From Minisyncoccia bacterium (GTDB taxonomy: Bacteria > Patescibacteriota > Minisyncoccia > UBA6257 > HR35): a stretch of 40,594 nt of DNA. The translations under genes were made by a program, and so were the position numbers. Positions 102 through 40,594 of the stretch are shown piece after piece (the first letter of the stretch is position 1; every line of letters begins with the position of its first letter). The notes under the pieces were generated by a model. That model was not told where the DNA came from. It did not search any database and saw nothing but the letters and a program-made list of their open reading frames with translations. Location of the stretch: positions 1-40,594 of the forward strand of contig JBMFMO010000001.1 of the NCBI GenBank assembly GCA_049970635.1, read 5' to 3'.

Positions 102-139
102 ATTCGTGACTAATTCGTGTAATTCGTGAATAATTCGTA
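102..139 (+). repeat. Phased word array: ATTCGTG x4 (last copy ATTCGTA)
   Basis: Word starts at 102, 113, 122, 133 (spacing 11, 9, 11). Confidence 0.85.
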
Positions 140-142
140 TAC

Positions 143-232
143 CGCGGATTAACCAACCACGGATATACGCGGATAGTGTTAATAAGCCGCGGATTAACGC
201 GGATAAATAATAAGCCGCTGATTAACGCGGAT
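143..232 (+). repeat. Phased word array: CGCGGAT/CACGGAT/CGCTGAT x7, including a 28-bp tandem duplication (181-208, 209-236)
   Basis: Word starts at 143, 158, 168, 188, 198, 216, 226. Three pairs are exactly 10 bp apart, with 18-20 bp between pairs. The two 28-mers differ at one base. Confidence 0.85.
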
Positions 233-249
233 AAATATATTTAGTCATT

Positions 250-280
250 ATTCGGGTAATATATTCGGTTTTTATTCGGG
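250..280 (+). repeat. Phased word array: ATTCGGG/ATTCGGT x3
   Basis: Word starts at 250, 263, 274. Confidence 0.75.
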
Positions 281-308
281 CAGTTTATAATTATAATAAT
301 GGAAAAAT

Positions 309-366
309 TTCGCATCAGTTCGCGTATTGTTCGCATTGGTTCGCATATTGTTCGCATTGATTCGCG
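309..366 (+). repeat. Phased word array: TTCGCA/TTCGCG x6
   Basis: Word starts at 309, 319, 330, 340, 351, 361 (spacing 10, 11, 10, 11, 10). Confidence 0.9.
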
Positions 367-371
367 TAGCT

Positions 372-382
372 TATAATATAAT
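372..382 (+). promoter_or_regulatory. Overlapping TATAAT -10 boxes (372-377, 377-382) just upstream of the iorA ATG
   Basis: The sequence is TATAATATAAT, then 6 nt, then the ATG at 389. No Shine-Dalgarno is present. The -35 is unclear: TTGTTC at 348-353 gives an 18-nt spacer to the first box. Confidence 0.45.
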
Positions 383-388
383 ATATTA

Positions 389-2005
389 ATGGAAAAAGAT
401 TTGTTTAAAAATAAAGGAGAAAAGGCTTTTCTTTTGGGGAATGAAGCAATAGTAAGAGGAGCATTAGAATCAGATGTAAGATTTATAACAACATATCCTG
501 GAACACCTACTTCTGAAATAGGAAATATTTTTTATGAATATAAAGATAAATTTGATTATTATTTTGAATTTTCTACAAATGAAAAAGTTGCTATGGAGTC
601 TTCTGCTGGCGCAAGTTTATGTGGTTTAAGATCTCTTGTTGCTATGAAAAATTTTGGATTAAATGTAGCATCTGATTTTTTATATCCATTAGTATATACT
701 GGTGTTAAAGGTGGAATGGTAATTGTTGTAGGAGATGATCCTTCTTGCCATAGCTCTGCTCAATCTGAAGATAATACAAGATTTAACATATTAAAAGCAC
801 ATATCCCAGCTTTAGAGCCATCAAATCCTCAGGAATGCAAAGATTTTACAAAATTAGCTTTTGAAATATCTGAAAAATTTTCTATACCAGTTATTATAAG
901 AGGGACAACAAGAGTTTTGCATCAATCAGGAATTGTTATTTTAGATGAGATTAAAAAGATAGAACAAAAAGCAAAGTTTGAAAAAGATCCATTAAGATTT
1001 TCTACAATGAATGCTGTTTTAAAACATAAAGAATTATTAGAAAAAATTGAGAGGATAAAAAATTTTGTAGAAAAATTAAAAATTAATTTTATAAAAAATA
1101 AAGATAAATCTAAGTTTGGTATCATAGCATCTGGGATTTCATATCAATATATTTTAGAAATTTTGGATGAATTAAATTTAAAAATCCCAATATTAAAATT
1201 AGGAGTTTTTTATCCTTTACCAGAAAAATTAATCAAAAATTTTATAAAAAATTTGAAGGAGGTTTTAGTTTTAGAAGAGCTTGATCCTATATTAGAAAAA
1301 GAGGTTGAAAGATTAGCGAAAGATTCAAATTATAAATTAAAAGTTTATGGAAAAGATTTAATAAATGAATTTGGCGAGATAAGGCCTGAAGATATCTTAA
1401 TTGCTTTATCAAAAATTTTAAATATAAAATTAGATTTTGATTATAAAAAGCATAAGGAGGAGATAGAAAAAATTAATATACCAAAAAGAACACCAAGTTT
1501 TTGTCCGAATTGTCCATATCATTTTGTTTTTTCAACAATAAAAAGAATTTTTCCAAATTTTATATTTGGTGGCGAAATAGGTTGTTATATGTTAGCATAT
1601 TACCCTCCTTATAATATGCAAGATTATCTTTATTGTATGGGATCAAGTGTTGGTGTTGCTCATGGTATTAATAAGTCATCAAAAGAGAAAGTTATAGCAT
1701 TTGTTGGTGATTCTTCATTTTTCCATGCTGCTATCCCAGAAATAATAAATGCTGTTTATAATAAATCAAATATTTTAATAATAATTTTAGATAATATGAC
1801 AACTGCAATGACGGGCCATCAACCTCATCCAGGAGTAGATGGAATAAAAATAGAAGATGTTTTAAATGGAATTGGAATAAAAAATTTAAAAGTTGTAGAT
1901 CCAATAGACATTAAAGAGTTTGAAAAAACATTAAAAGATTTTTCAGAAAAAGATGGTGTTTCAGTAATTATTGCAAGGCATCCTTGTGCATTTATAAAAA
2001 GATGA
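389..2005 (+). CDS. iorA: Indolepyruvate:ferredoxin oxidoreductase, alpha subunit (TPP-binding)
   Basis: 538-aa ORF. N-terminus LLGNEAIVRGALE..YPGTPTSEI. CPNCPYH motif. C-terminal TPP motif GDSSFFH...LDN..TGHQ. ATGA overlap with the beta subunit. Confidence 0.85.
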   Translation: MEKDLFKNKGEKAFLLGNEAIVRGALESDVRFITTYPGTPTSEIGNIFYEYKDKFDYYFEFSTNEKVAMESSAGASLCGLRSLVAMKNFGLNVASDFLYPLVYTGVKGGMVIVVGDDPSCHSSAQSEDNTRFNILKAHIPALEPSNPQECKDFTKLAFEISEKFSIPVIIRGTTRVLHQSGIVILDEIKKIEQKAKFEKDPLRFSTMNAVLKHKELLEKIERIKNFVEKLKINFIKNKDKSKFGIIASGISYQYILEILDELNLKIPILKLGVFYPLPEKLIKNFIKNLKEVLVLEELDPILEKEVERLAKDSNYKLKVYGKDLINEFGEIRPEDILIALSKILNIKLDFDYKKHKEEIEKINIPKRTPSFCPNCPYHFVFSTIKRIFPNFIFGGEIGCYMLAYYPPYNMQDYLYCMGSSVGVAHGINKSSKEKVIAFVGDSSFFHAAIPEIINAVYNKSNILIIILDNMTTAMTGHQPHPGVDGIKIEDVLNGIGIKNLKVVDPIDIKEFEKTLKDFSEKDGVSVIIARHPCAFIKR

Positions 2006-4862: not shown

Positions 4863-5695
4863 TTAAAAGAAGGTATATTTTTTACATCCTATCAACAATA
4901 ATTTTTTTATTTGGTGGGTTTGCTCCTAATATCTTTAATATAAATTATGGGATAGATTTAAAGGGAGGGCAATTGATTGAAATTAGAACGAGTTTAAAAG
5001 ATATAAATTTTATTTTAAAGGAGATGAATATAAGCGGTGATTTGACAAAAACAAAAGATAGCATAATATTAAAAACAAGAAATGTTGATCCAAACCTTCT
5101 TTTAAACGAGATAAAAAGATATGATCAAAACGCAAAGATAGTAAAATTAGATGAAATTAGCCCTTCATTAAGCGGAGAACTTGTTAAAAAATCACATCTT
5201 GCAATATTATTTGTTTTATTAGGTATAGGAATTTATATAACAATAGCATTTTGGGAAAAAAGAGGATTAATAAGTGGTTTTTTGTTTGGGATTGTAACGG
5301 TTATAACATTGTTTCATGATGTTATAGGAAGTTTGGGGGTCTTTACATTACTTTCTCATATATACAATTTTGAATTTAATATAAATATAATAATAGCATT
5401 TTTACTTGTCGCATCTTTTTCAACACATGATACAATAGTTGTTTTTGATAGATTAAGAGAAAATTTAAAAAGAGCTGGGAAAATATCTGAAGATATTTTT
5501 GAAAATTCTATAAGGCAAACAATTGTAAGATCTACAAATATTTCTTTAACAATAATATTATCAATATTACCTCTATTATTTTTGATTGAAAATATAAAAC
5601 CATTTGCTTTAGTTTTAATAATAGGAACAATAATAGGAACTTATTCTTCTTTATTTTTAGCAACTCCACTTGTTTATGATTTAACAAGAAAATGA
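4859..5695 (+). CDS. secF: Protein-export membrane protein SecF
   Basis: 278 aa. NYGIDLKGG motif and a six-helix hydrophobic profile. ATGA overlap with gatB. No adjacent secD. Confidence 0.8.
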   Translation: MIKRRYIFYILSTIIFLFGGFAPNIFNINYGIDLKGGQLIEIRTSLKDINFILKEMNISGDLTKTKDSIILKTRNVDPNLLLNEIKRYDQNAKIVKLDEISPSLSGELVKKSHLAILFVLLGIGIYITIAFWEKRGLISGFLFGIVTVITLFHDVIGSLGVFTLLSHIYNFEFNINIIIAFLLVASFSTHDTIVVFDRLRENLKRAGKISEDIFENSIRQTIVRSTNISLTIILSILPLLFLIENIKPFALVLIIGTIIGTYSSLFLATPLVYDLTRK

Positions 5696-6333
5696 AAATT
5701 ATACCTGCTATAAATACTAGAAGTTTTGATGAGGCTAAAGAAAGGATAAATTTATTAAAAGATTTGACAAAAGATTTTCATATAGATATTTCTTCAATTG
5801 ATTTTTCAAATTATGAAACTTGGCAAAATCCTAAAGAAATTGATAAATTAGACGACGATTTAAAACTTCATCTGCATTTAATGATAAGATTAAAACCACA
5901 AGAAATTTTAAAATGGGATAACAAAAGAATTAAATCTTTTATCTTGCATTTAGAAGGAACAAATTTACCAGATGCTTTATTAAAATTTTCTAAAAAAACT
6001 AAAAAAAGTATATTTGTTGCATGGAGCCCTAAGATAGAAAAAGAATTTATTGAAAGATATATAAAATTTGTAGATGGAATTTTAGTTTTAGGAGTTGAGC
6101 CTGGAAAATCTGGACAAAAAATTTTGGAAGATACATTTGAAAGAATAAAAATAGCAAAAAATTTTTTAAATAATAAACAAAAACTAATAGTAGATGGAGG
6201 AATTAATATGGAAAACATCAAAGATATAATAAAGCTTAATGTTGATATTATAGTTATAGGATCAGCAATATTTGAGGGAAATAACCCAAAAGAAAACTAT
6301 TTAAAGTTTTTAAAAGCCGCTGATGAACGCTGA
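5692..6333 (+). CDS. rpe: Ribulose-phosphate 3-epimerase family protein
   Basis: 213 aa. IIPAI, HIDIS, LHLHLM, GVEPGKSGQKI and VDGGIN..VIGSAIF match the Rpe barrel signature positions. The sequence is divergent. Confidence 0.65.
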   Translation: MKIIPAINTRSFDEAKERINLLKDLTKDFHIDISSIDFSNYETWQNPKEIDKLDDDLKLHLHLMIRLKPQEILKWDNKRIKSFILHLEGTNLPDALLKFSKKTKKSIFVAWSPKIEKEFIERYIKFVDGILVLGVEPGKSGQKILEDTFERIKIAKNFLNNKQKLIVDGGINMENIKDIIKLNVDIIVIGSAIFEGNNPKENYLKFLKAADER

Positions 6334-6362
6334 TAAATAATGAACCACGGATTTACGCTGAT
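6318..6362 (+). repeat. Phased word array: CGCTGAT/CACGGAT x4, starting inside the rpe 3' end
   Basis: Word starts at 6318, 6328, 6346, 6356 (spacing 10, 18, 10). The rpe stop TGA (6331-6333) lies inside the second word. Confidence 0.8.
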
Positions 6363-6367
6363 ATTAT

Positions 6368-6409
6368 ATTCGTGAATAATTCGTATAGTTTATTCGTGAT
6401 TAATTCGTG
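6368..6409 (+). repeat. Phased word array: ATTCGTG x4 (one copy ATTCGTA)
   Basis: Word starts at 6368, 6379, 6392, 6403. The last word abuts the TATAAT at 6410. Confidence 0.85.
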
Positions 6410-6415
6410 TATAAT
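6410..6415 (+). promoter_or_regulatory. TATAAT -10 box 8 nt upstream of the trpS ATG
   Basis: GTATAATATAATAAAATG. No Shine-Dalgarno is present. Confidence 0.4.
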
Positions 6416-6423
6416 ATAATAAA

Positions 6424-7404
6424 ATGAAAAGGATTTTAACTGGAATAAAGCCAACAGGAGAGATACAGCTTGGAAATTATTTAGGAATGATAAAAAACAT
6501 TATTGATATGCAAAATAAATATGAAATTTTTTTAATGGTTGCTAATTTGCATGCCCAAACAGTTCCATTTGACCCAAAAGAGATAAAAAGATTAACTTAT
6601 GATTTAGTTTCATCTTTTATAGCTCTTGGGATTGATCCTAAAAAAACAACAATATTTCTACAATCTGATGTTCCTGCTCATCTATATTTATATTGGATTT
6701 TAGGATGTATTTCTCCATTAGGAGATTTAATGAGAATGCATGAATTTAAGGAGCAAAGTCAAAGATATAAAAAAGAAGGAGTTGGGGCTGGAATTTTAAT
6801 GTATCCTGTTTTAATGGCTGCTGATATTTTAATTTACAATGCTGATTTAGTACCAGTTGGTGAAGATCAGAGACAGCATGTTGAGCTTACAAGAGAATTA
6901 GCAAGAAAATTTAATAGATTATTTGGAAAAACATTTAAAATTCCTGAAATTTTTATACAACCAGAAACAGCTAAAATAATGAGTTTAGATAATCCAAATA
7001 AAAAAATGTCTAAGTCTTTACCGGAGGGATGTTTAGAAATATTTGCAGATGAAAAAGTTATAAAAGAAAAGATATTAAAAGCTGTTACTGATTCAGGAAA
7101 AGAGATAAAATATGATCCAGTAAATAAACCAGCTATAAGTAATTTAATGACAATCTATAAATATTTAACTAAGAAAACATATTCTGAAATTGAAGAAGAA
7201 TTTAAAGGAAAGGGATATTATGAATTTAAAAATGCTATAATAGATGCATTCTTCAAATATTTTGATAAAGTAAGAAAAATTAAAAAGAAAATTAATAAAA
7301 ATTTTGTAAAAAAGATATTAAAACAAGGAGCAGATAGAGCAAACAAAACAGTAAACAAAAACCTAAAGCTCATATTGAAAAGAACAGGGTTAATTTTAGA
7401 TTAA
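6424..7404 (+). CDS. trpS: Tryptophan--tRNA ligase
   Basis: 326 aa. N-terminal GIKPTGEIQLGNYLG (class I HIGH region), GEDQRQH, and a KMSKS motif. Confidence 0.9.
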   Translation: MKRILTGIKPTGEIQLGNYLGMIKNIIDMQNKYEIFLMVANLHAQTVPFDPKEIKRLTYDLVSSFIALGIDPKKTTIFLQSDVPAHLYLYWILGCISPLGDLMRMHEFKEQSQRYKKEGVGAGILMYPVLMAADILIYNADLVPVGEDQRQHVELTRELARKFNRLFGKTFKIPEIFIQPETAKIMSLDNPNKKMSKSLPEGCLEIFADEKVIKEKILKAVTDSGKEIKYDPVNKPAISNLMTIYKYLTKKTYSEIEEEFKGKGYYEFKNAIIDAFFKYFDKVRKIKKKINKNFVKKILKQGADRANKTVNKNLKLILKRTGLILD

Positions 7405-7469
7405 AATATAAGAATATATAAAAAGTGGTTTAAAATAACAAATTAAAGCATTAGTATCAAAAGTAAACA

Positions 7470-7625
7470 TTAAATTACCTTCCTATCTTTCCTAATTCTT
7501 CTTTGCCACTTCAATGGATTTATTATTTTTTTATTTTTCCATAAACCAGCAGCTTTTTCCCAAATTTTCCAATTTTTCTTCAAAACCAATCTTTTTTCTT
7601 TTTTTATTTCTACTATTTTAGTCAT
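7470..7625 (-). CDS. Hypothetical small basic protein (51 aa), not in the ORF track
   Basis: Hand translation: MTKIVEIKKEKRLVLKKNWKIWEKAAGLWKNKKIINPLKWQRRIRKDRKVI. It lies downstream of the GC-rich island. No family was recognised. Confidence 0.3.
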   Translation of the reverse strand: MTKIVEIKKEKRLVLKKNWKIWEKAAGLWKNKKIINPLKWQRRIRKDRKVI

Positions 7626-7647
7626 AGTTTAATTACAACATAAATTA

Positions 7648-7733
7648 GCCTGCCTGCCCTCCCTGCCCTGCCTGACGGCAAGGCAGGGAGCGGGCCTGCC
7701 TCGCCTGGTCAAGGCAGGCAAACTTGCTTTGCC
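7648..7733. repeat. GC-rich island built from GCCTGCC/GGCAGGC words; three potential hairpins
   Basis: Hairpins: CCCTGCC (7666-7672)/GGCAGGG (7682-7688); GCCTGCC (7694-7700)/GGCAGGC (7713-7719); GGCAAA (7717-7722)/TTTGCC (7728-7733). Composition contrasts sharply with the AT-rich flanks. Confidence 0.7.
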
Positions 7734-7748
7734 AAAACCGAATAGAAT

Positions 7749-7823
7749 ATCCGCGTTCATCCGCGGTTTTTATTAGAGATCAGCGTATATCCGCGGCTGA
7801 AAATATATCCGCGTTAATCAGCG
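7749..7823 (-). repeat. Phased word array: ATCCGCG/ATCAGCG x6 (reverse complement of CGCGGAT/CGCTGAT)
   Basis: Word starts at 7749, 7759, 7779, 7789, 7807, 7817 (spacing 10, 20, 10, 18, 10). The array ends 1 nt from the dnaJ stop. Confidence 0.85.
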
Positions 7824-7824
7824 G

Positions 7825-8853
7825 TTATTGTTTTTCTATTTCTTCTTTGATTTTTTTTAGTAGTTCTTTGATTTTTGGAGTTAATTTTTTGATTGGTTTT
7901 ATATTTACTTTAATTATTAAATCTCCTCCATGTATACCATATCCAGGTATTCTTATATAATCTTCAGTAAAGTTTTCAGGAATTTTTACATTAATATCTT
8001 TGCCAAAAAAGTTTATCTTTAAATCTTTCCCCAATATTGCATCAATTATATTTAAATCTATAGATGTTATAATATCCCTTCCTTTTACATCATATTTTGG
8101 ATGTTTTTGTATATTTATTCTTATCAAAAGATCTCCGCTCTTTTTTGTTTTTGGATTTTGGTCACCCAAGCCTGCTATTCTTATAATTTCATATGGATTA
8201 AAGTTTTTGGGCAAATTTATCTTTACAACCTCATCTTTTATAATATATCCTCTTCCTTGGCAATTTTTACATACTTTTTCAGGAATTTTTCCTGTTCCAT
8301 TACAATTTCTACAAATTTTGCTAGTTTCAAAGATAAATCCTGTAAAGAAGCTTGATTTTGATCTTATTTTTCCATAACCATTACAAATAGGACATTTTAT
8401 TAATCTTTTAGTTTCGCTTCCTGTTCCATCACAATTTGGGCATATAACTTTTCTCTTAAAATTTATAACCTTTTCTATTCCATTTAAAATTTCTGGAATT
8501 GTAACATCAATATCTAAAATAATATCCTTACTTTTTTCTTCAGGATAAAAAGAAAAAAAATCCTCTAATAAATCAGATAGTAAATCATCAAAATCTTGTC
8601 TTCTAAAAAAGCTTTCCAAATCTTCAAATCCAAATCCAGGAAACTCAAATCTTCCCATCTTTCTTTTCATATCATACTCTTGCCTTAATTTTTTATCTGA
8701 CAAAATTCTATATGCTTCTAAAATTTTTTTAAATTTTTCAGCATCTCCACCCATATCAGGATGGTATTTTTTAGCAAGCTCCCTAAACCTTTTCTTTATC
8801 TCTTCTTCAGATGCATTCTCTGGTACTCCTAATATTTGATAATAATCTTCCAT
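7825..8853 (-). CDS. dnaJ: Molecular chaperone DnaJ
   Basis: 342 aa. J domain with YHPD. Four CxxCxGxG zinc-finger repeats: [32 protein letters not shown]. Confidence 0.9.
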
Positions 8854-8854
8854 C

Positions 8855-9784
8855 TTATATTTTGATTAATTCTTTTTCTTTTGTTTCTTTTTCTATCTTA
8901 ATAATTTTTATTTTTAAAAATATAAGGTAAATAAGATAAGATAAGATTGAAATAAATATTCCTAAAAAGTAAAGTATTGATTGGGCTGTTAGAAAAACAA
9001 AAACTCCGAAGATAATCTTTGTCGCCATCTCTTTTTTCTTATCATTTTTCAATAATTGTGTTTGATTATATAGATATTCTGAAATTGCTGTTTTTAATGT
9101 TGAATCTTCATTTAGATTTAATGAAAATTTTTTGTTTAATTCATTTATATAAAGCTTAATTGCTAATTTTTTCCCTTCTTCATCTAAATTTGAGTTTAAA
9201 TTTTTTAAAATAATATCAGAAAGTTTATTATTTAAATAATCTTCCTTTGTAAAAAATGCAGATGCTTTTCCTATAAAACTAACAATATTTTCTATCTTCT
9301 CTTTTTCTAAACCACTTATATTAAAAACAAAAACAATGTAAGAGAACAAAATTAATAAAATTATTAAAGAATAAAAATTCCATATTGTTCTAAAATAATT
9401 TGTCCATTTTATCCTCAATGAATTCTTATAATCTTCTATTAGATAAATTATAGCAATTGAATTTAAAATTAAAAATGAAACCAATGAAGAAATTATAAAA
9501 TTTAGATTAAGTTTATAAATAAAGCTATATAAAATAGATGATTCTAATAAAAGAAGGATTAGGATCTGAACAAAATTAAAGTTTAGAAAAGAGACAAGAG
9601 AAAGGTTTAAAAATAAGATAAAAATAAAAAATGATAAGATAAAATTTTTGAGATTAAAAACTGGTTGTTTTAAAACCAAAAACAAAAAAGAGAAGAAAAG
9701 TATTAATATGATAATTAAAAATAAAGAATAAAATTTTCTTTCTGTTCTATAGATCTTTGAAATATCTTCTAATCTTAAAACCAT
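8855..9784 (-). CDS. Hypothetical polytopic membrane protein inserted between dnaK and dnaJ
   Basis: 309 aa with several long hydrophobic segments. It is tightly packed, with no gap to dnaK and a 1-nt gap to dnaJ. No family was recognised. Confidence 0.5.
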
Positions 9785-11599
9785 TTATGTTTGTTGTTGT
9801 CCATAAAATTGTTGACCTATTTGTGAAATGATTGATGAAAGTTCTTTTATTTTATTATCAATCTCATCAGGATCATTGCTTCTATTTTTTATATCTTCTA
9901 ATTCCTTAATCTTATCTTCAATTGTCTTAACTAAATCTTCCGATATTTTATCTTTATAATCATTTAATATCTTTCTTGTCTGATAAATAATATTATCTGC
10001 CTGATTTTTTGCTTCTGCCAATCTTCTTTTTCTTAAATCTTCTTCTGCATGCATTTCTGCTTCTTTTTTCATCCTTTCTATCTCTTCTTTTGAAAGATTT
10101 GTTGATCCCTCAATTCTCACAGATTGTGTTTTACCAGTTGCCTTATCTTTTGCAGTAACAGTTAATATTCCATTAACATCAATATCAAATGTAACTTCAA
10201 TCTGTGGAACTCCTCTTGGAGCTGGTGGTATTCCATCTAAAATAAATCTTGCTAGTGTTTTATTATCATCTGCTATTGGTCTTTCTCCTTGGACAACATG
10301 AATTTCTACTGATGTTTGGTTATCTGCTGCAGTTGTAAATATTTCTGTCTTAGAATATGGGATCGGTGTATTTTTAGGAATCATAGGGTGAGCAATATTT
10401 CCTAATGTTTCAATAGATAATGTTAATGGTGTTACATCTAAAAGCAAAACTTCTCTAACCTCTCCTTGTAATATTCCTGCTTGAATTGCTGCTCCTATTG
10501 CTACAACTTCATCTGGGTTTATATCTTTTCTTGGTTCTTTTCCAAAATAATCTTTCACCATTTTTTGAATTAATGGCATTCTTGTTTGTCCTCCAACTAA
10601 AATGATCTCATCAATATCTTTTGGTGTTAATCCTATCTCTTTCAAAGTTTTATCAACTATCTCCATTGATCTTTCTACAAAATGTTTTGTTAAATTTTCT
10701 AATTGTGCTCTTGTAAGTTTAAAGTATAAATGCTTTGGCTGGCCTTCATAAGAAGTTATAAATGGAAGATTAATTTCTGTTTCATATAAAGTAGAAAGTT
10801 CTTGTTTTGCTTTTTCTGCTGCTTCTTTTAATCTTTGTAATGCTAAAGGATCTTTGCTTAAATCTATTCCTTCTTGTTTTTTATATTCTTCTATTAAAAA
10901 TTTAATAATCTCTTGATCAAAATCGTCTCCACCCAAAAATGTATCTCCACCTATCCCTTTTGTTTCTATAACATTATCTCCTATTTCTAAAACAGATACA
11001 TCAAATGTTCCGCCACCAAAATCATAAACTAAAATTTTTTGATTAACATTTTTATCTAATCCATATGCTAATGCTGCTGCTGTTGGCTCTGGTAATATTC
11101 TTCTAACATTAAATCCTGCTATTTCTCCTGCTGCTTTTGTTGCTGCTCTTTGTGAATCATTAAAATATGCTGGTACTGTTATAACTGCATCTGTTATTTT
11201 TTCTCCCAATTTTTGTTCAACATCTAATTTTATCTTTTGTAAAATCATAGCAGAAATTTCTTCTGGCCTATACCATTTATCTCCCATCTTAACTTCAACT
11301 CCTCCATTTGCAGATTCTCTTATTTCATATGGCAAAATTTTTTTAGCTTTTTGAACTTCTTCATCACTATATCTTCTACCAATCAATCTTTTTATAGAAA
11401 ATATTGTATTTTGAGGATTTGTTATAGCTTGTCTTTTTGCTAAAATCCCAACAATTCTTTCACCAGATTTTGAAATAGCAACAACAGAAGGAGTTAATCT
11501 CCCTCCTTCAGGATTTTCAATAACACGGGGAGTTCCAGCTTCAACAATCGCAGCAACTGAATTTGTTGTTCCTAAATCTATTCCTAAAATCTTTTGCAT
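9785..11599 (-). CDS. dnaK: Molecular chaperone DnaK (Hsp70)
   Basis: 604 aa. [19 protein letters not shown], and a full substrate-binding domain and lid. Confidence 0.95.
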
Positions 11600-11617
11600 T
11601 TTATTATTAATAATTAT

Positions 11618-11872
11618 TTAATTAATGTTAAAAAATTCTTTTAAATAATAATTATTTAATATTTCCTTATAATGGGATTGTTGGGAAATTTTTCTGTTAA
11701 CAGGAGATAAAAATTTTTTGAAGATAAAAATTTTGTTTAACAAAAAATTGTTATCCTTATAGGCTAAAAATCCCTTTATTTTCCTATATTTTTCAACATT
11801 ACAAAACCTTTCTTCAAAATTTTTTATTCTTCTATTTGTTGTTCCTAAACCTATTCCTAAAATCTTTTGCAT
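11618..11872 (-). pseudogene. Duplicated dnaK 5' end (first 13 codons) fused to an 84-codon open frame spanning an AT-rich insert
   Basis: 11834-11872 matches 11561-11599 at 38/39 nt. The ATG at 11872 sits 1 nt after the grpE stop. The frame stays open to 11618, 19 nt before the real dnaK ATG. Confidence 0.6.
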
Positions 11873-11873
11873 C

Positions 11874-12386
11874 TTAATGAACAATTACTTTTACTTTTGC
11901 TGGTCTTAATAATTGATCATTTAATTTATATCCTTTAGCCAAAACTTCTATTATTAAATTATCATCACTTTTATCGCAATTTTCTTTATCGCATTTTTTT
12001 GTTGAAATAGCTTCATGAAACTTTGGATCAAATTTTTCTCCCTTTGGATCTATAACTTCTAATCCATATCTTTTTAAAATCCCCCAAATTTGTGCTTGTA
12101 TCATATAATATCCTTTTCCTAAATTTTTTTCCTTTTCATCATCACTTAAAGAATTTGTAGCCAAATCTAAACTATCCAAAACTGGCAATAATTCTAAAAT
12201 CAATCCAGCATTTGCAAAATATATTATATTTTTCATCTTTTCCTCAGCCTCTTTTTGATAATTTAAATGTTCAACCTTCATCTTTTTTAAATTAGCAATC
12301 AAATCCTCATTTTCTTTCTTTAATTTTTCAATTGTCTCTTGCAATTCTTTTACTGTTTCGTCTTCTGTTGGTAATTTTTCATCCAT
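11874..12386 (-). CDS. grpE: Nucleotide exchange factor GrpE
   Basis: 170 aa. An N-terminal coiled-coil is followed by a C-terminal beta domain (FDPKFHEAIS...RPAKVKV). Confidence 0.85.
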   Translation of the reverse strand: MDEKLPTEDETVKELQETIEKLKKENEDLIANLKKMKVEHLNYQKEAEEKMKNIIYFANAGLILELLPVLDSLDLATNSLSDDEKEKNLGKGYYMIQAQIWGILKRYGLEVIDPKGEKFDPKFHEAISTKKCDKENCDKSDDNLIIEVLAKGYKLNDQLLRPAKVKVIVH

Positions 12387-13516: not shown

Positions 13517-14721
13517 GGTCCTCCTAAAATTGATTTTAATAAAGATACTACACCTGTTATTACAAGAAGCAAGAAATATCCTATTACAGCCCATTTTATA
13601 ATCTCATTTCCCTTTTTAATTTGCTCAGACACAGGAGTGAAGAGATACAATAATCCTCCTATTATAAGTAAGATAGAGAAGATATACGGTGCTAATTTAA
13701 ATAAAAAATCTTTTACAGCCTTAAATATATCTTCTGGTCCTATCTCTGAAAATTCTTTTCCAAAAAATCCTGTAGGTTTTACAGCAATAGGAATTTCAGT
13801 TGTTGCAGTCCAAATTCTTCCACCATATTCTGTTATTGAAAGATTACCAACGTTTTTTGCAGCGTCTTGGGTTATTTTTGTTATACTTGCACCTCCTGAA
13901 TCCCAGAAATTACATTTTGTAGCAATAGATCTTATAGCAGCATAAATGCGGTTTATATTATTAGAAACATCTATATTAAGTTTATTTAATAATTCTTTAT
14001 TTGAAAAATCATCAAAATCATAATAACAGATAGCATTGTATTTACTTATTCCAGGAATTCCATTTAAGCACTTTTGTGGCTGGAGTAATCCAAATAGTTT
14101 TTGTTCTGTAAGTACATTATTATTAAGAGATATTAAAGAGTTATTTAAATTTTCTAGAGCTGTTGTTATGGTTGGATCATTAGGATTTTTTATACTACAA
14201 TTATTCTCTGCTAAAAACTGCCCTAAATTATTTAAATTATTCTTTATTTTCTCGAGATTCTTATAAATTTTATTAATAGTTGTTACTAAGTTTTGTAAAA
14301 TCTGAACAGTATTTTTTATATCCGCAGCCCTTGAACTTAAGGCACTATAATAAGCATCATACTCGCTCTCACTTGGATTTCTTATTATCCTTTCTTTCCA
14401 TTCTCTTTCTTGATTATCTAATACAAAAATTAAATAACTTTCCCCTATTTGTAAAGAAAGGGGCCAAGGTATTTGATCGACATATTTATCAATATAATAC
14501 ATCGGTAGATTATTGGTGGTATACAAATGATTCCCTATAGTGCCACGCGGATTATCTAGTACAGAAAAGAATGTATTAATATTACCATTCCACTGAATAC
14601 GTGGTTTATTATCTATAATTGTAGAAAGGGTAATCTGAACTTTACTTATTGTTTCTTCTCCATAACAAAAGTTTATTGATGCTAAACTTATTAAAATTAT
14701 TAGTAAAATTATTTTTTTCAT
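13513..14721 (-). CDS. Secreted protein with a C-terminal TrbC/VirB2-like (T4SS-pilin-like) two-helix module
   Basis: 402 aa. Signal peptide MKKIILLIILISLASINFCYG. A ~310-aa N/S/T-rich ectodomain with several Cys. C-terminus is TM - SEQIKKGNEIIK loop - TM. Confidence 0.55.
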   Translation of the reverse strand: MKKIILLIILISLASINFCYGEETISKVQITLSTIIDNKPRIQWNGNINTFFSVLDNPRGTIGNHLYTTNNLPMYYIDKYVDQIPWPLSLQIGESYLIFVLDNQEREWKERIIRNPSESEYDAYYSALSSRAADIKNTVQILQNLVTTINKIYKNLEKIKNNLNNLGQFLAENNCSIKNPNDPTITTALENLNNSLISLNNNVLTEQKLFGLLQPQKCLNGIPGISKYNAICYYDFDDFSNKELLNKLNIDVSNNINRIYAAIRSIATKCNFWDSGGASITKITQDAAKNVGNLSITEYGGRIWTATTEIPIAVKPTGFFGKEFSEIGPEDIFKAVKDFLFKLAPYIFSILLIIGGLLYLFTPVSEQIKKGNEIIKWAVIGYFLLLVITGVVSLLKSILGGP

Positions 14722-15155
14722 TTTGTTAATTCTTCAATTAATTTTAATATTTCATCTGCTACAAAGATTATTATAAAACCTAAAAATGTATATAATAAAG
14801 CTTTTTTCCCTTTTTCAATTAATTCTTTTTTCATTGGAGAAAATATAAAAAATCCTGCTACAACAACTATCATTAAAACAAATATTATTGCTGAAAAATA
14901 TTTTAATGCATTTGTTACTTTTTCTACACAAGCAGTTATTTTACCAAGCGCAGTATCTTTGCCTTCTGCACATTTTGGTATAGCTGAAGGTGCTATTTGT
15001 TTATAAAAATATCCCCATGCTTCTGGTTTTAGAGGATTTAAATAATCTTGATTTTGTTGTCCATTTGGAGGATTTAAATAATCTTGATTTTGTTGTCCAA
15101 ATGTAAAAAATATAGGTATTAAAATTAAAGATAAAATAACTATTATCTTTTTCAT
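14718..15155 (-). CDS. TrbC/VirB2-like (T4SS-pilin-like) small membrane protein with a 12-aa tandem repeat
   Basis: 145 aa. Signal peptide, GQQNQDYLNP x2, then TM - MKKELIEKGKK loop - TM. ATGA overlaps on both sides. Confidence 0.55.
   Translation of the reverse strand: MKKIIVILSLILIPIFFTFGQQNQDYLNPPNGQQNQDYLNPLKPEAWGYFYKQIAPSAIPKCAEGKDTALGKITACVEKVTNALKYFSAIIFVLMIVVVAGFFIFSPMKKELIEKGKKALLYTFLGFIIIFVADEILKLIEELTK
15032..15103. repeat. 36-bp tandem repeat x2 inside the 145-aa gene
   Basis: Units 15032-15067 and 15068-15103 are identical at 34/36 nt. They are in frame and encode GQQNQDYLNP(P/L). Confidence 0.9.
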
Positions 15156-16704: not shown

Positions 16705-17219
16705 TTTTTAATAACTGCTAAATAATAATTATCATTAAATTTTTTTTGAAACTCCATCTCCTTCCCTTTAACTTCAAAATAAGTTTTTAAAATATCAAAA
16801 CTTATTGGATTTCCAAAGATAAAAGGAATTTTTTTGTTTGGTTCTAAGATAATCAAATATCCACCATCTTTTAAAATTCTTAATCCTTCTTCTAAAATTT
16901 TTTCATATTCTTCATTCTGGAAAAGTAATTGGCTTATAAAAACTACATCAAAACTATTTTCATCATATGGTAATTTTTTAACATTCGATTTTAAATATAC
17001 AACATTTTTATATCCAAATAAATCTATTAATTCTTTTGTCTCATTTATAGCATCTTCTAAAATATCTATAGCATAAATTTTCCCTTCTGCTCCAACTTTT
17101 TCAGCTAATAAAACTGTAAAATATCCACCACCGCAACCAAATTCAGCAATCTTATCACCTTTTTTTATAAAGAAATTTTGAGTTAAAATATCTATTACTT
17201 CTTTTGGTTTTATTACCAT
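16701..17219 (-). CDS. Class I SAM-dependent methyltransferase
   Basis: 172 aa. Motif I is IAEFGCGGGYF. An acidic residue follows after beta2 (YAIDI), and motif IV-like is DVVFIS. Confidence 0.8.
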   Translation of the reverse strand: MVIKPKEVIDILTQNFFIKKGDKIAEFGCGGGYFTVLLAEKVGAEGKIYAIDILEDAINETKELIDLFGYKNVVYLKSNVKKLPYDENSFDVVFISQLLFQNEEYEKILEEGLRILKDGGYLIILEPNKKIPFIFGNPISFDILKTYFEVKGKEMEFQKKFNDNYYLAVIKK

Positions 17220-17811: not shown

Positions 17812-18656
17812 TATAAAATCTCTTTTATCTTATCTTTGTATCTATTAAATAAACTTAATTTTAGTTTTCCAATGTATTCTTCTCCTATTGAATATTTTGC
17901 CCTAAAAGAGATTGTTAATTCATAAAAATCTTGTGAAATATTAATATTATCTTCAACCCCACATCTTACAATTTGTTGATTTTCTTCTTTAAACTTTTCT
18001 AAAAAATTATTAAGATCTTTAAGGAATTCATCAAAATCAACATTCTTATCAAGCTTTATTTTGAAAGAAAATTTTTTTGTTTCTCTGCTTAAATTAATTA
18101 TTGATAATATTTGGCTGTTTGGGAAAAATATTAAATTTCCTTCTTTATCTTTTAAAACAATATATCTTAAATTAATTTTTATAACCTTTCCTGTAAATTG
18201 TGGAGTATTGTTTATCATTATCAATTCTCCTTTTCTTATTTGATCTTCAAATAATAAAAGCCATCCTTTTATAATATCTTGAATTGTACTTTGAAAAATA
18301 ACAACAAAAGCTGCACCTATAAATCCTAAACCAGTAATAAATGGAATTAATTTTATTTCAAATTCTCTTAATACCAAAAAGAAAAATATTAAAAAAATTA
18401 TTACCTTTAAAATAGAATCCAAAACAGAAGAAAGCGTTGATATCCTTTCTGCCTGTACCTCTTCTCCTTTAATATTTTTTATCTTAACTCCAATCTTTAC
18501 AGATTTATAAATTATCTTTCTGAATAAAATATAGATTATAAGAAGAATAATAAAATAAATCCCTATATTTAAAAATTTTTCCCTGCTTTCTTCCAAAAAT
18601 ATCCTAAAAAATTTAAGATATAAATTTAAGCTTTTTTCCATTTTAAAATTATACAA
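17811..18656 (-). CDS. Small-conductance mechanosensitive channel (MscS family)
   Basis: 281 aa. N-terminal TM helices, then the MscS beta domain (IIKGWLLLFEDQIRKGELI...GKVIKINLRYIVLKDKEGNLIFFPNSQI). Confidence 0.8.
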   Translation of the reverse strand: MYNFKMEKSLNLYLKFFRIFLEESREKFLNIGIYFIILLIIYILFRKIIYKSVKIGVKIKNIKGEEVQAERISTLSSVLDSILKVIIFLIFFFLVLREFEIKLIPFITGLGFIGAAFVVIFQSTIQDIIKGWLLLFEDQIRKGELIMINNTPQFTGKVIKINLRYIVLKDKEGNLIFFPNSQILSIINLSRETKKFSFKIKLDKNVDFDEFLKDLNNFLEKFKEENQQIVRCGVEDNINISQDFYELTISFRAKYSIGEEYIGKLKLSLFNRYKDKIKEIL

Positions 18657-19260
18657 AAATCTTATTTTGCTTACTAATTTTAATTGCCTTATTTAAAATT
18701 TTAATTGTTTCATCATATGTTTTTCTATCAACAAAATATGGTGTTCCATCTTTACCACCATGAGTAAATGTATATCTTGCAGGATCTATCTTTGATGTAT
18801 CCTTATTATAAATTAATTCTCCTACTAAAGAAATCGCCCTTATTGTTTTTGGACCAACTCCTTCTATTAAAAGTAAATCTTCTATTGTTTTTGGTTCTAA
18901 AAATGATGCTTTATAGATTGTTTTTTTCAATCTTTTTATATCAAATTTTTCTTCCAAGACAGGATGATACTTAAATTCTATATCTGGTAAAAATAGATTT
19001 TTTATCTTTTTATCATCTTGTTTCTTGTTTACTATATTTAGATCTTTTATAAGTTCATATGGTTGATTTACCATTTCAACAATAAGATTTTTATTCTCTA
19101 AACTATCTTTATGTGTAAGATTTAAAACTCTTTTAAATTTAATCTCTGAAACTATTCCTGAATGTGGTTCTAATGTCATATCTTTTACATTTTTTGAAAA
19201 CCAATGGTATCTTCTTGCCAATCCATAACTTGTATTCATTCCTTGCTGTATTACTCCCAT
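18649..19260 (-). CDS. DUF763 family protein, C-terminal part (contains a helix-hairpin-helix)
   Basis: 203 aa, starting GVIQQGMN..ARRYHW. HhH-like LIEGVGPKTIRAISLVGELI. It continues the upstream ORF in another frame. Confidence 0.6.
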   Translation of the reverse strand: MGVIQQGMNTSYGLARRYHWFSKNVKDMTLEPHSGIVSEIKFKRVLNLTHKDSLENKNLIVEMVNQPYELIKDLNIVNKKQDDKKIKNLFLPDIEFKYHPVLEEKFDIKRLKKTIYKASFLEPKTIEDLLLIEGVGPKTIRAISLVGELIYNKDTSKIDPARYTFTHGGKDGTPYFVDRKTYDETIKILNKAIKISKQNKIFV

Positions 19261-19715
19261 ATTTTATCTTTATAAAATATAAAAGCATGGTGGTAAATAT
19301 TAAATCCATCTTGAATTAATGAATTATCTACTTTTGCTACTAATCTTGAAATTTTTATATAGTTTTTTGGATCAAAACCAATTTTTTCTCCAAATATAAC
19401 TAATTCTTCTGGGGTTTTTCTTGATGTTTTTCCCTTTCCTCCACAGATATAAATTCCTAAATTTTTTTCTTTTAATGCTTGCTTTAATGCTGCTGTTGTT
19501 ACAACTGTCAAGCCGCTACTGTTCCAATCAAATGCTAATGCACAACCAAAGGCTTGAAACCAGTAAGGATCCGATAATTTTTTAATAAACTCTTCTGCAC
19601 CAAATTCTTCTATTATTATTTCAGCCATAATACCAGAAAGTTTTTTCATTCTTTCAAAGAGCCATTTAGGACATCTTCCTTCATCTAAAGTAAAAGTTGC
19701 TATTCCTGTTCTCAT
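19251..19715 (-). CDS. DUF763 family protein, N-terminal part
   Basis: 154 aa. RTGIATFTLDEGRCPKWLFERMKKL...YWFQAFGCALAFDWNSSGLT is the conserved DUF763 N-terminus as I recall it. It ends 10 nt inside the next ORF. Confidence 0.6.
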   Translation of the reverse strand: MRTGIATFTLDEGRCPKWLFERMKKLSGIMAEIIIEEFGAEEFIKKLSDPYWFQAFGCALAFDWNSSGLTVVTTAALKQALKEKNLGIYICGGKGKTSRKTPEELVIFGEKIGFDPKNYIKISRLVAKVDNSLIQDGFNIYHHAFIFYKDKIWE

Positions 19716-33951: not shown

Positions 33952-33954
33952 TTG

Positions 33955-34026
33955 AGCCAGAGGTGGGATTCGAACCCACAACCTGCCGCTTACAAGGCGG
34001 CTGCTCTGCCATTGAGCTACTCTGGC
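33955..34026 (-). tRNA. tRNA-Thr(UGU)
   Basis: The reverse complement reads GCCAGAG TA GCTC AATGGCA GAGC A GCCGC CTTGTAA GCGGC AGGTT GTGGG TTCGAAT CCCAC CTCTGGC T. Confidence 0.9.
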
Positions 34027-34036
34027 TTATTAAATA

Positions 34037-34065
34037 ATTATAAGATAAAAGAATAAAGAGTTCAA
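34037..34065 (-). promoter_or_regulatory. Sigma70 promoter TTGAAC-17-TATAAT for tRNA-Thr
   Basis: -35 at 34065-34060, which lies in the unique insert. -10 at 34042-34037, which lies in the duplicated segment. The tRNA 5' end is 10 nt downstream of the -10. Confidence 0.55.
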
Positions 34066-34309
34066 GGAAATTAGAAATTTTCTATTTATAACCCAAGGTT
34101 CAAAAATTATTTATTTTCCTATATTTTTTATGATCTATCTTTAAATAGGATTTGGAAAAAAATTTTGTGAATATAAAAATAAAGTAAAGTTTTTCCATTA
34201 ATAGAAGAAGATCTTTTAAAAAAAATTTTAATCTCTTATCTTAAAAATAGAGTATATGAAAAAATATTGAATTTTCCTATATTTTTTAATATTAAAAATT
34301 TTTTAATAA

Positions 34310-34364
34310 AAGGCGGCTGCTCTGCCATTGAGCTACTCTGGCTTATTAAATAATTATAAGATAA
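34310..34364 (-). pseudogene. Duplicated tRNA-Thr 5' half (nt 1-33, 34310-34342) plus 22 nt of its upstream flank, including the TATAAT
   Basis: A 55-nt exact copy of 33994-34048. The identity ends inside the anticodon. Confidence 0.85.
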
Positions 34365-34444
34365 CACGGACTTAACACGGACAAGAACGGACTTAACGCA
34401 GACAGACGCCGACTTAACACGGACATACACGGACCAAAACGGAC
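34364..34444 (+). repeat. Phased word array: ACACGGAC and variants x8
   Basis: ACGGAC-type cores start at 34366, 34377, 34387, 34398, 34408, 34419, 34429, 34439 (spacing 11, 10, 11, 10, 11, 10, 10). Units 4 and 5 are ACGCAGAC and ACGCCGAC. Confidence 0.9.
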
Positions 34445-34540
34445 ATAAAAATGATATATCTGAACAATCAGTGTCAAGCCCAAACTGTCTGTGTTAAGTC
34501 TAGTATTTTTTAAAAATTAATTCGACCTTATTTAATTATA

Positions 34541-40485: not shown

Positions 40486-40515
40486 GTCCGTGTCTAGTCC
40501 GTGTCTAGTCCGTGT
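40486..40515 (+). repeat. 11-bp tandem GTCCGTGTCTA x3 (reverse complement of the ACACGGAC word)
   Basis: Word starts at 40486, 40497, 40508. The last unit abuts the rpsL stop codon. The array lies in the rpsL-rpsG intercistronic region. Confidence 0.9.
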
Positions 40516-40594
40516 TTATTTTTCTCTTTTAGCACCGTATAATGATCTACCTTGTTTTCTTCCTTCTACTCCACTAGCATCATAAACACCTCTT
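40516..40594 (-). CDS. rpsL: 30S ribosomal protein S12, C-terminal fragment (truncated by the window edge)
   Basis: Hand translation of the reverse complement: RGVYDASGVEGRKQGRSLYGAKREK, then stop. Confidence 0.85.
   Translation of the reverse strand, partial: RGVYDASGVEGRKQGRSLYGAKREK

Follow-up and report, generated by a model that had tools for sequence, protein, structure and literature searches.

Helically phased CpG-word arrays upstream of iorA in a Minisyncoccia contig: possible members of a dispersed, expandable repeat family of Patescibacteria

What occupies the 265 bp upstream of iorA (positions 102-366) near the start of a Minisyncoccia contig, and does it serve iorA at all? The contig, which is the whole window of 40,594 nt analyzed here, comes from a metagenome-assembled genome named "Minisyncoccia bacterium" (Patescibacteria, or Candidate Phyla Radiation, CPR), and its gene content is bacterial (DnaK/DnaJ/GrpE/HrcA, EF-G, S7, SecY, RNase J, ComEC and GatB). 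An earlier, sequence-only reading had divided the region into four blocks, each built from a word family of its own, and had suggested binding arrays for several proteins, a curved-DNA element or a modular element upstream of the promoter. On the basis of sequence comparison, we give an even chance to another answer: the region would consist of three or four piled-up arrays that belong to a dispersed Patescibacteria repeat family expanded in this lineage.

All 20 words of the region were found where the sequence-only reading had placed them, two of them in degenerate form (ATTCGTA at 133 and ATTCGGT at 263). Hereafter ATYCG-type words are denoted by > and CGRAT-type words by <. Block 1 (102-139, plus strand), which begins 100 bp from the contig end, contains ATTCGTG at 102, 113 and 122 and ATTCGTA at 133 with spacings of 11, 9 and 11 bp, and forms a >>>> arm without a left partner arm. 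Block 2 (141-235, minus strand, <<<<<<<) contains seven CRCKGAT words (ATCMGYG on the minus strand) starting at 143, 158, 168, 188, 198, 216 and 226, each of them CGCGGAT, CACGGAT or CGCTGAT. Its direct-repeat pairs are 10 bp apart and are laid out in three units of 28-30 nt (150-177, 180-207 and 208-235); Tandem Repeats Finder recovered the 28-bp tandem duplication claimed earlier, at 180-237 with 96% matches. Block 3 (250-280, plus strand, >>>) consists of ATTCGGG at 250, ATTCGGT at 263 and ATTCGGG at 274, spaced by 13 and 11 bp, and makes up a "<<<<<<< >>>" unit together with block 2. It is followed by a duplicate of the iorA promoter (284-309, plus strand; TATAAT plus ATGGAAAAA), which opens a 25-codon open reading frame (ORF; 299-376) running through block 4. 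This ORF is probably a by-product, and the earlier view that the arrays are non-coding was upheld. Block 4 (309-367, plus strand, >>>>>>) contains (G/A)TTCGCR at 309, 319, 330, 340, 351 and 361. The reported alternation of its spacing (10, 11, 10, 11, 10) was correct, and it corresponds to a 21-nt period (87% matches; 309-368 in Tandem Repeats Finder). The proximal iorA promoter (370-391, plus strand) then follows, with TATAAT at 373-378 and the ATG at 389 in a leaderless layout.

The four word families did not prove to be independent. They are variants, or opposite orientations, of one oriented motif, A-T-Y-C-G-N-G; block 2, when read on the other strand, gives ATCCGCG, ATCCGTG or ATCAGCG. 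An alignment, centred on the CpG, of 134 units drawn from 11 arrays in the window and in its relatives showed A at 84%, T at 87%, Y at 93% and the last G at 63% around the C, G and N positions, with AT-rich flanks. In the window, 36 of the 48 matches to RTYCGNR lie inside arrays. Each word of 7 bp is followed by an AT-rich spacer of 3-4 bp, and two such words, head-to-tail at a distance of 10-11 bp, usually make up the basic unit, as in CCGCGGAT-taa-CGCGGAT. The pairs are either contiguous, giving a 21-nt period (block 4 and the array at 34364-34447), or separated by 7-10 nt, giving a period of 25-28 nt (the 28-nt units of block 2). Blocks occur in both orientations, typically with the CGRAT type first and the ATYCG type after it.

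The phasing of the words far exceeds what composition would produce. Three or more identical 6-mers spaced by 9-12 bp were counted as a chain; there are seven chains in 102-366 and none in any of 1000 dinucleotide-preserving shuffles; over the whole window, 12 chains of the same type were found, as against a mean of 0.21 and a maximum of 2 in 100 shuffles. CpG-to-CpG distances within the arrays peaked at 10, 11, 20, 21 and 30 bp. The statement that every block keeps its words on one face of the helix held for blocks 1 and 4. It did not hold throughout block 2, where phasing is limited to the pairs (themselves 28-30 bp apart), nor for block 3 with its spacings of 13 and 11 bp, and phase was not maintained between the blocks of 102-366. 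The spacers, described earlier as A/T tracts, are AT-rich with just two A/T runs of four or more bases in 265 bp. No 10.5-bp periodicity of AA/TT was found in 102-366, the power at 10-11 bp being within the shuffle range. Since there are neither A-tracts nor AA/TT phasing, intrinsic A-tract curvature is unsupported, and the curved-DNA reading was rejected.

Block 4 lies within a duplication of the start of iorA. The exact 11-nt sequence TAATGGAAAAA is repeated directly around it, at 298-308 and 387-397, inside an imperfect duplication of about 25 nt that comprises the iorA promoter and the first three codons. Genes that start transcription units in the window (389, 3438, 6424, 20536 and, on the minus strand, 20515) have TATAAT 6-11 nt 5' of the ATG and no Shine-Dalgarno sequence, a layout which indicates that their predicted mRNAs are mostly leaderless. 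In the relatives designated L081 and L082, the iorA genes of which are 88% and 77% identical, the upstream region is 20 bp and 52 bp long, respectively, and contains no array. Both have a single leaderless iorA promoter of the same kind (…TATAATATAgaaATGGAAAAAGAT). With the same promoter present in so short a region, and with arrays turning over elsewhere as described below, a modular regulatory element dedicated to iorA is unlikely.

The recurrence of the words at 6318-6409 and 7749-7823, noted earlier, was substantiated; both are real arrays. The second array (6310-6409, plus strand) begins within the last codons of rpe, with two 28-nt CGCTGAT/CACGGAT pair units (<<<<) followed by four ATTCGTG/ATTCGTA words (>>>>), the last of which abuts the TATAAT of trpS. 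The third (7738-7824, minus strand) extends from the dnaJ stop codon and contains, on the minus strand, three CCGCKGAT-N3-CGCKGAT pair units and then ATTCGGT; it is 80% complementary to 187-232. Two further arrays had been overlooked. The fourth (34364-34447, plus strand), between the RNase J stop codon and a duplicated tRNA-Thr promoter, contains eight copies of ACACGGAC (GTCCGTG type) with a 21-nt period, certain of which have decayed to ACGCAGAC or ACGCCGAC. The fifth (40486-40518, plus strand; its repeats at 40486-40515) lies right after the rpsL stop codon, about 65 nt before rpsG, and consists of three copies of GTCCGTGTCTA (GTCCGTG) with an exact 11-nt period.

Copies of the 28-nt unit TAATAAGCCGCGGATTAACGCGGATAAA are found at 150-177, 180-207, 208-235, 6310-6337 and 6338-6365 with 71-96% identity, spacers included, and the unit is also present in inverted form in a 46-nt stretch at 7779-7824 (80% complementary). 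Because the spacers are conserved as well, whole units, and not just words, must have been copied between three loci. The composition of the arrays is equally distinct. CpG is scarce in the window (GC content about 26%), with 210 observed and 709 expected (ratio 0.30; 0.33-0.59 in the relatives). The five arrays together account for 556 bp, or 1.4% of the window, and hold 57 of these 210 CpGs (27%); outside them, CpG clusters were found in the window only in tRNAs and in one GC-rich hairpin. That the arrays are rich in CpG although the genome purges it, and that CpG decay can be seen in their words, argues for copies that are young or continually renewed.

Some other features were observed beside these arrays. 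The GC-rich hairpin, a CCTGCC-type patch at 7649-7730 (-56.8 kcal/mol, z = -3.8) without an Rfam match, sits between the dnaJ-proximal array and a 51-aa ORF (7470-7625, minus strand). Next to the fourth array, the tRNA-Thr promoter and the 5' half of the tRNA are duplicated (33991-34048 and 34307-34364, 58 nt, 98% identity) on either side of a 258-bp AT-rich insert, the full tRNA being present only at the copy at 33954-34026. In a similar manner the first 43 nt of dnaK are duplicated (11561-11603 and 11834-11876, 95% identity), and the 230-bp insert between grpE and dnaK (11604-11833) is AT-rich and CpG-free. Within these two inserts, 11778-11818 resembles 34271-34311, and 11635-11661 is complementary to 34028-34054. 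As judged from these similarities, the dnaK and tRNA-Thr inserts appear to belong to a second repeat family, whose members would duplicate the 5' end of the gene they enter over 43-58 nt.

The distribution of the arrays was examined in about 120 kb of the close clade, the members of which come from hot-spring metagenomes (one record is GBSCSSed77C). An exact look-up of the window's TrpRS gave no match, and a search of genome contigs with TrpRS gave relatives of at most 49% identity, which were used solely as control sequence. L081, which lacks the array upstream of iorA, carries an array of about 450 bp between iorB and a convergent lectin-like gene, with about 40 ATTCGNG, CACGAAT and ATCCGTG units at alternating 10/11 spacing and with orientation flipping by block. 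The ATYCG core is invariant over these units, and positions +2 and +3 vary freely. Three relatives found through RNase J, at 91% identity (L085, L086 and L087), have arrays after rpmG (ACCCGAAT, ACCGGAT) and beside a tRNA (ATCTGCG, ATCCGCG and others). After RNase J they carry CCCGGAT/ACCGGAT pairs, in contrast to the oppositely oriented GTCCGTG words at this place in the window. The fifth array, which separates rpsL from rpsG in the window, has no counterpart in L085, in which the two genes abut. Among relatives of 73-75% identity, L090 has two arrays, while L088, L089 and L091 have none. The arrays, present at about one per 8-13 kb and in non-orthologous places, are thus patchy and turn over quickly. 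In the 91% relatives we also observed a MITE-like element (miniature inverted-repeat transposable element) with terminal hairpins (AACGACATCNGATGTCGTT) and an internal palindrome (ttctatatttctatagaaatatagaaa), at 4930-5130 and 11975-12260 in L085 and at 4660-4960 in L087; ttctatagaaa strings related to it are present in the window at 28-58, at the contig start, and at 34056-34090, in the tRNA-Thr insert.

Since the region upstream of iorA lies so close to the contig end, it might have arisen in assembly; alternatively, the arrays might encode guide RNAs. Equivalent arrays are present in L085, L086 and L087, which were assembled independently of one another (JGI and ENA), and the arrays are therefore not assembly artefacts; the four other arrays of the window are internal to the contig. 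As for guide arrays, tandem interspaced guide RNA (TIGR) arrays occur in CPR bacteria, without conserved repeats (bioRxiv 10.64898/2026.09.09.750476). CTGATGA and CTGA strings are present in the array at 6310-6409. With units of 10-11 nt and spacers of 3-4 nt, however, the arrays leave no room for CRISPR spacers or 36-nt tigRNA units, and no gene for Cas or for a Nop-domain Tas protein was found among the scanned ORFs. TIGR-Tas was rejected on both counts, and the artefact and guide-array explanations retain next to no probability.

Another possible interpretation is that the arrays are neutral minisatellites, expanded from units in AT-rich spacers by slippage or unequal recombination and neither bound nor functional. 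The blocks are indeed homogeneous inside (the 28-bp duplication with 96% matches, the exact 11-nt repeat in three copies), and one 26-bp pair unit, besides CpG-to-CpA and C/T changes inside words, sets L087 apart from L085 and L086. Words decayed by CpG-to-TpG or CpA changes, such as ACTGAAT, CCAGGAT and ACCAGAT, are seen in the relatives. Neutral expansion does not readily account, however, for an ATYCG core that stays invariant over about 40 units of L081 next to free +2 and +3 positions, for a core and polarity that distant lineages share despite their different GC content, for 10/11 alternation in arrays of different words, or for CpG-rich arrays in genomes that purge CpG. The invariance of the core against its free neighbours and the 10-11-bp spacing point rather to recognition by a protein. 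We consider the minisatellite explanation improbable. On the sequence comparison as a whole, the arrays are dispersed, patchy, polymorphic in unit number and, to all appearance, inserted at iorA with a duplication of the target.

A wider family came into view when metagenomes were scanned with ATTCG x4 at 10-11 bp, a query of one word only, which gave at least 120 matches. A recurrent design was found in which three or four CGAAT words at 10-11 bp are followed by three or four ATTCG words, with dyad-symmetric ends and often with CGAATATTCG at the centre. Among the matches listed, together with L090, the complete elements are those of L090, L104, L128, L135, L155, L167, L170 and L180; L175 has two incomplete versions, one 4+2 and one 1+4, the latter centred on CGAATATTCG. 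The polarity is CGAAT-first in eight of the eight complete elements and in the incomplete copies of L175, and the reverse was seen solely in one unrelated tandem-repeat family (ATTCGAAGGTT). The named carriers belong to the Patescibacteria group, Candidatus Liptonbacteria and, with one contig, Elusimicrobiota, the taxonomy being known for three outside contigs. Dyad ends are present in L090, L104, L155 and L167, for example TCGCYCGAAT...ATTCGRGCGA or TACCCGAAT...ATTCGGGTA. BLAST of the array against plasmid and phage collections gave no match. In viral contigs the ATTCG x4 scan found only two contigs of giant-virus bins, with TATTCGTTTTT arrays, and the 4+4 centre pattern had no match there. 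In these two (L083, 7428-7515; L084, 500-580), TATTCGTTTT(T) is repeated eight to nine times at 10-11 bp in AT-rich intergenic DNA, a similar phased design in an unrelated setting.

The palindromic 4+4 elements fold well as single strands, by hairpins of word with word (z = -7.5 in L090, -4.2 in L104 and -3.9 in L155). In view of this, the arrays might act at the RNA level, their transcripts at 3' ends stabilizing or terminating mRNAs as hairpins or protein-binding repeats in the manner of repetitive extragenic palindromic (REP) sequences. For words after stop codons, the mRNA strand reads NNCGRAU in eight of nine cases. The arrays of the window, however, do not fold better than shuffles (z = +1.5 for 6310-6412 and -0.2 for 140-285), as expected from the earlier statement that they are not REP-type palindromes. 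Words alone are conserved, with no covariation; > blocks lie 5' of promoters; and in Rfam the window gave four tRNAs alone at the gathering threshold, with nothing credible in 7400-7830 and no family matching the arrays. A role at the RNA level is very unlikely.

Three of the related elements, the complete ones of L090 and L155 and the 4+2 version of L175, lie inside genes with the reading frame kept, as seen from comparison with solved homologues. In L090, CTP synthase (pyrG) has an interdomain linker that is longer by about 30 aa exactly where the element (16988-17070) lies; residues 269-305 of the protein (nt 16978-17088) are unaligned to structure 3nva. In L155, about 21 extra aa are found in MiaA between GTAK and HHLID, and in L175, 27 extra aa are found in UvrB between DYF and DF(I/L). 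The insertions in pyrG, miaA and uvrB share a common frame across the centre, giving …RIF…. These in-frame insertions were found outside the window only, none being seen within it. A link back to the window is provided by the L090 pyrG gene, which has a second extra segment of 11 aa encoded by GTCTGCGTCA ATCAGCGTCA AGTCCGCGCG (ATCNGCG x3); MiaA has a similar stretch. Since the ATCNGCG words of block 2 occur in pyrG of L090, and L090 is a syntenic 73% relative, the window arrays are tied to the family. With related repeats in-frame in essential genes, moreover, the arrays resemble selfish insertion DNA more than a control region dedicated to iorA. In uvrB of L175 there is also a second array (765-825; CGAATATTCG plus three ATTCG words) on coding sequence of native length; the first CGAAT of this array represents the codons for the conserved Arg-Ile in the FGDxIxRI motif. 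The case hints that arrays may be seeded at pre-existing CGAAT words.

Words that are over-represented, come in dialects and lie in inverted blocks after genes are known from DNA uptake sequences and uptake signal sequences (DUS/USS). The arrays could accordingly be read as uptake or recombination signals spread by molecular drive in competent CPR bacteria; the window encodes ComEC, and the in-frame occurrence in genes also resembles DUS/USS biology. DUS/USS, however, are single sites arising by point mutation and not inserted tandem arrays of 3-40 copies, and here several dialects coexist within one genome. This explanation seems extremely unlikely.

A weightier alternative is that the arrays are regulatory or architectural sites of the host, to which a winged-helix factor of the OmpR/PhoB or CtsR kind, or a nucleoid protein, would bind cooperatively to activate, repress or insulate leaderless promoters or to block read-through in a genome poor in intrinsic terminators. 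Sites of this type classically have a 7-bp word with a 4-bp AT spacer, repeated directly in pairs at 10-11 bp. The resemblance to iterons or winged-helix direct repeats, already pointed out from the sequence, is thus genuine in geometry, including that of an OmpR/PhoB operator, and the core is conserved next to variable positions. In addition, > blocks end 0-6 nt 5' of the TATAAT of trpS, of both iorA promoter copies and of tRNA-Thr, and < blocks start at stop codons; arrays are also found between convergent genes (iorB and the lectin-like gene in L081, trpS and dnaJ in the window). A promoter and terminator scan of the window gave counts equal to those of shuffles, with four terminator-like sites found and 4.0 expected, which would leave room for a role in read-through. 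Position alone is nevertheless weak evidence, since spacers this compact leave a tolerated insertion no place other than the short stretch from a stop codon to the promoter that follows. Against host regulation, the arrays are not conserved at the orthologous promoters of the 77-91% relatives, the flanking genes (iorA, trpS, dnaJ, RNase J, tRNA-Thr and rpsG) have no functional theme, related elements sit inside pyrG, miaA and uvrB, and no regulator gene is linked to the arrays. Taken together, these facts make host regulation unlikely, though not negligibly so. It is worth noting that this explanation and that of minisatellites are compatible with a mobile repeat family, because a host protein could bind selfish arrays.

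We therefore return to the repeat family. We consider it the best reading, and about as likely as not, that the arrays represent a mobile or expandable family, the phased words of which would be putative sites for an oligomeric DNA-binding protein. In such a family, arrays would grow and shrink by gain or loss of whole units, and new sites would be gained by insertion after stop codons, 5' of leaderless TATAAT promoters and, elsewhere in the phylum, in-frame in loops of essential proteins. At iorA, the insertion would have landed upstream of the gene and duplicated its promoter and first three codons. The candidate protein would line up head-to-tail on the words, on one face of the helix, as iteron-binding proteins, ParR or PhoB-type proteins do, and would most plausibly mobilize or maintain the repeats; transcription of iorA would be affected secondarily, if at all. 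The family might spread as selfish DNA, surviving only where it is tolerated, namely after stops, before -10 elements and in protein loops. More tentatively, the arrays may represent a class of self-propagating DNA in Patescibacteria and at least one member of Elusimicrobiota, based on a helically phased CpG pentamer (ATYCG/CGRAT), canonically four facing four, the arrays of which an oligomeric protein would recognize and copy or expand. One hot-spring Minisyncoccia lineage would then have developed word dialects and arrays of 100-450 bp.

Several observations weigh against a mobile family. No transposase, recombinase or binding protein was identified in the window or at the examined loci, mobility being read from distribution, and no consistent target-site duplication was seen at the 4+4 elements. 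Copies typical of MITEs have more in common than the present ones, which share words alone or, for the 28-nt unit, words and spacers. The window arrays are non-palindromic and non-folding, with arms of different words and no terminal inverted repeats, in contrast to the palindromic 4+4 elements, so that the two are linked by the core, spacing, polarity and taxon that they have in common. The surroundings of trpS, about 21 kb in each of two groups of 87-89% relatives, contained no arrays. The metagenome matches, from a scan biased to ATTCG x4, were mostly unrelated 11-bp tandem repeats or a eukaryote-like repeat. The abutment of arrays on -10 elements, finally, is also compatible with a host regulatory role.

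If the family is real, it would matter in several respects. CPR/Patescibacteria genomes are very compact and are thought to be poor in regulators and repeats, and the family would point to an unrecognized DNA-binding or mobilizing activity in them. It would be a source of rapid variation in promoters and protein loops, and some of the contig breaks in CPR assemblies would be accounted for by it. Because the words are short, phased and highly specific, a binding protein is directly testable.

Three further observations concern other genes of the window. The heat-shock operon has the order hrcA-grpE-dnaK-X-dnaJ, where X is a 309-aa ORF (8855-9784) without a Pfam match. DUF763 is spread over two overlapping ORFs (19251-19715 and 18649-19260), by a frameshift or as a true split gene. 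A gene for a TrbC/VirB2-like pilin (14718-15155, minus strand) contains an internal 36-nt tandem duplication (15028-15099, 97% identity) adding 12 in-frame codons.

How, then, do the arrays compare with known systems? Searches of the literature on CPR repeats, MITEs and palindromic elements, and for the literal sequences themselves, turned up no account of arrays like these. With TIGR and CRISPR arrays they share short interspaced repeats in CPR genomes. CRISPR repeats of 23-50 nt with unique spacers of similar length differ from the 7-nt repeats and 3-4-nt spacers found here, as the sequence-only reading had rightly concluded, and the two array types also differ in period (10-11, 21 or 28 nt here, with a basic period of 10-11 nt, vs 36 nt or at least 55 nt) and in having a Tas or Cas gene, no Nop/Tas match having been found in the scanned ORFs. 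Nor were the imperfect palindromes of 20-40 nt with stable hairpins that mark REP sequences and bacterial interspersed mosaic elements seen in the window arrays, which fold like shuffles, or the A/T runs phased at about 10.5 bp that typify A-tract curved DNA (only two runs of four or more bases in 265 bp). The low-affinity DnaA arrays of E. coli oriC, two opposite sets of four 9-mers with an 11-bp period, have much the same geometry as the opposite, 10-11-bp phased 4+4 elements, and T-W-A-T-Y-C agrees with the DnaA box TTATCCACA over its first six positions. The last three positions, however, are GNG instead of ACA, and there are many copies per genome, some of them intragenic, with no dnaA/dnaN context; with six of nine positions in common and the wrong copy number and context, a DnaA-box reading was rejected. 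A LexA-box reading of a CGAAT-N4-ATTCG centre was likewise rejected, the spacing at the centre ranging from 0 to 11 nt and beyond.

Iterons, type II partition centromeres (parC; 11-bp x10 in R1, 20-bp units in pSK41), pho boxes of the PhoB/OmpR type (7-bp repeat, 4-bp AT spacer) and P2 Cox boxes resemble the arrays in their short word plus AT spacer, in head-to-tail copies one turn apart and in pair units, a geometry which implies cooperative binding to one face. Those systems, however, occur once per replicon, regulon or att site beside a rep, par or regulator gene, as iterons and centromeres lie at one locus beside the cognate rep or par, whereas here five loci in 40 kb are non-orthologous and of several variants; no linked rep, par, response-regulator, transposase or Tas gene was found near them among the scanned ORFs. 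The earlier verdict that the arrays are not a MITE was too strong, in view of units dispersed with their spacers, polymorphism in presence/absence and in copy number, and related in-frame insertions. Like MITEs such as the Correia elements of Neisseria, they are non-autonomous and dispersed, polymorphic in presence, and located near promoters and gene ends, where such elements can duplicate or create promoters. They differ in having no consistent signature of terminal inverted repeats plus target-site duplication and no partner insertion sequence (IS), in the word variants among copies and in internal tandem growth. The window and the examined loci yielded neither dispersed copies similar from end to end nor an autonomous IS related to them, and in place of a fixed-length target-site duplication block 4 is flanked by the 11-nt exact repeat within the imperfect one of about 25 nt. 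Rickettsia palindromic elements (RPEs) are similarly short (about 90-150 bp) dispersed repeats of a reduced genome, intergenic and in-frame in conserved genes, with no associated transposase, and their in-frame insertion is matched by the related elements in pyrG of L090, miaA of L155 and uvrB of L175. RPE copies, however, are alike over their whole length, while here only phased words of 5-7 bp are shared; moreover, the arms consist of 3-8 direct repeats at 10-11 bp, the non-palindromic window arrays expand to 265-450 bp, and the phylum is another one. In geometry, the arrays are thus closest to iterons, parC and pho-box arrays, although the traits that define membership of those families fail. 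In distribution and in-frame insertion, although whole-length similarity, a fixed target-site duplication and a partner IS are lacking, they are closest to RPEs and MITEs.

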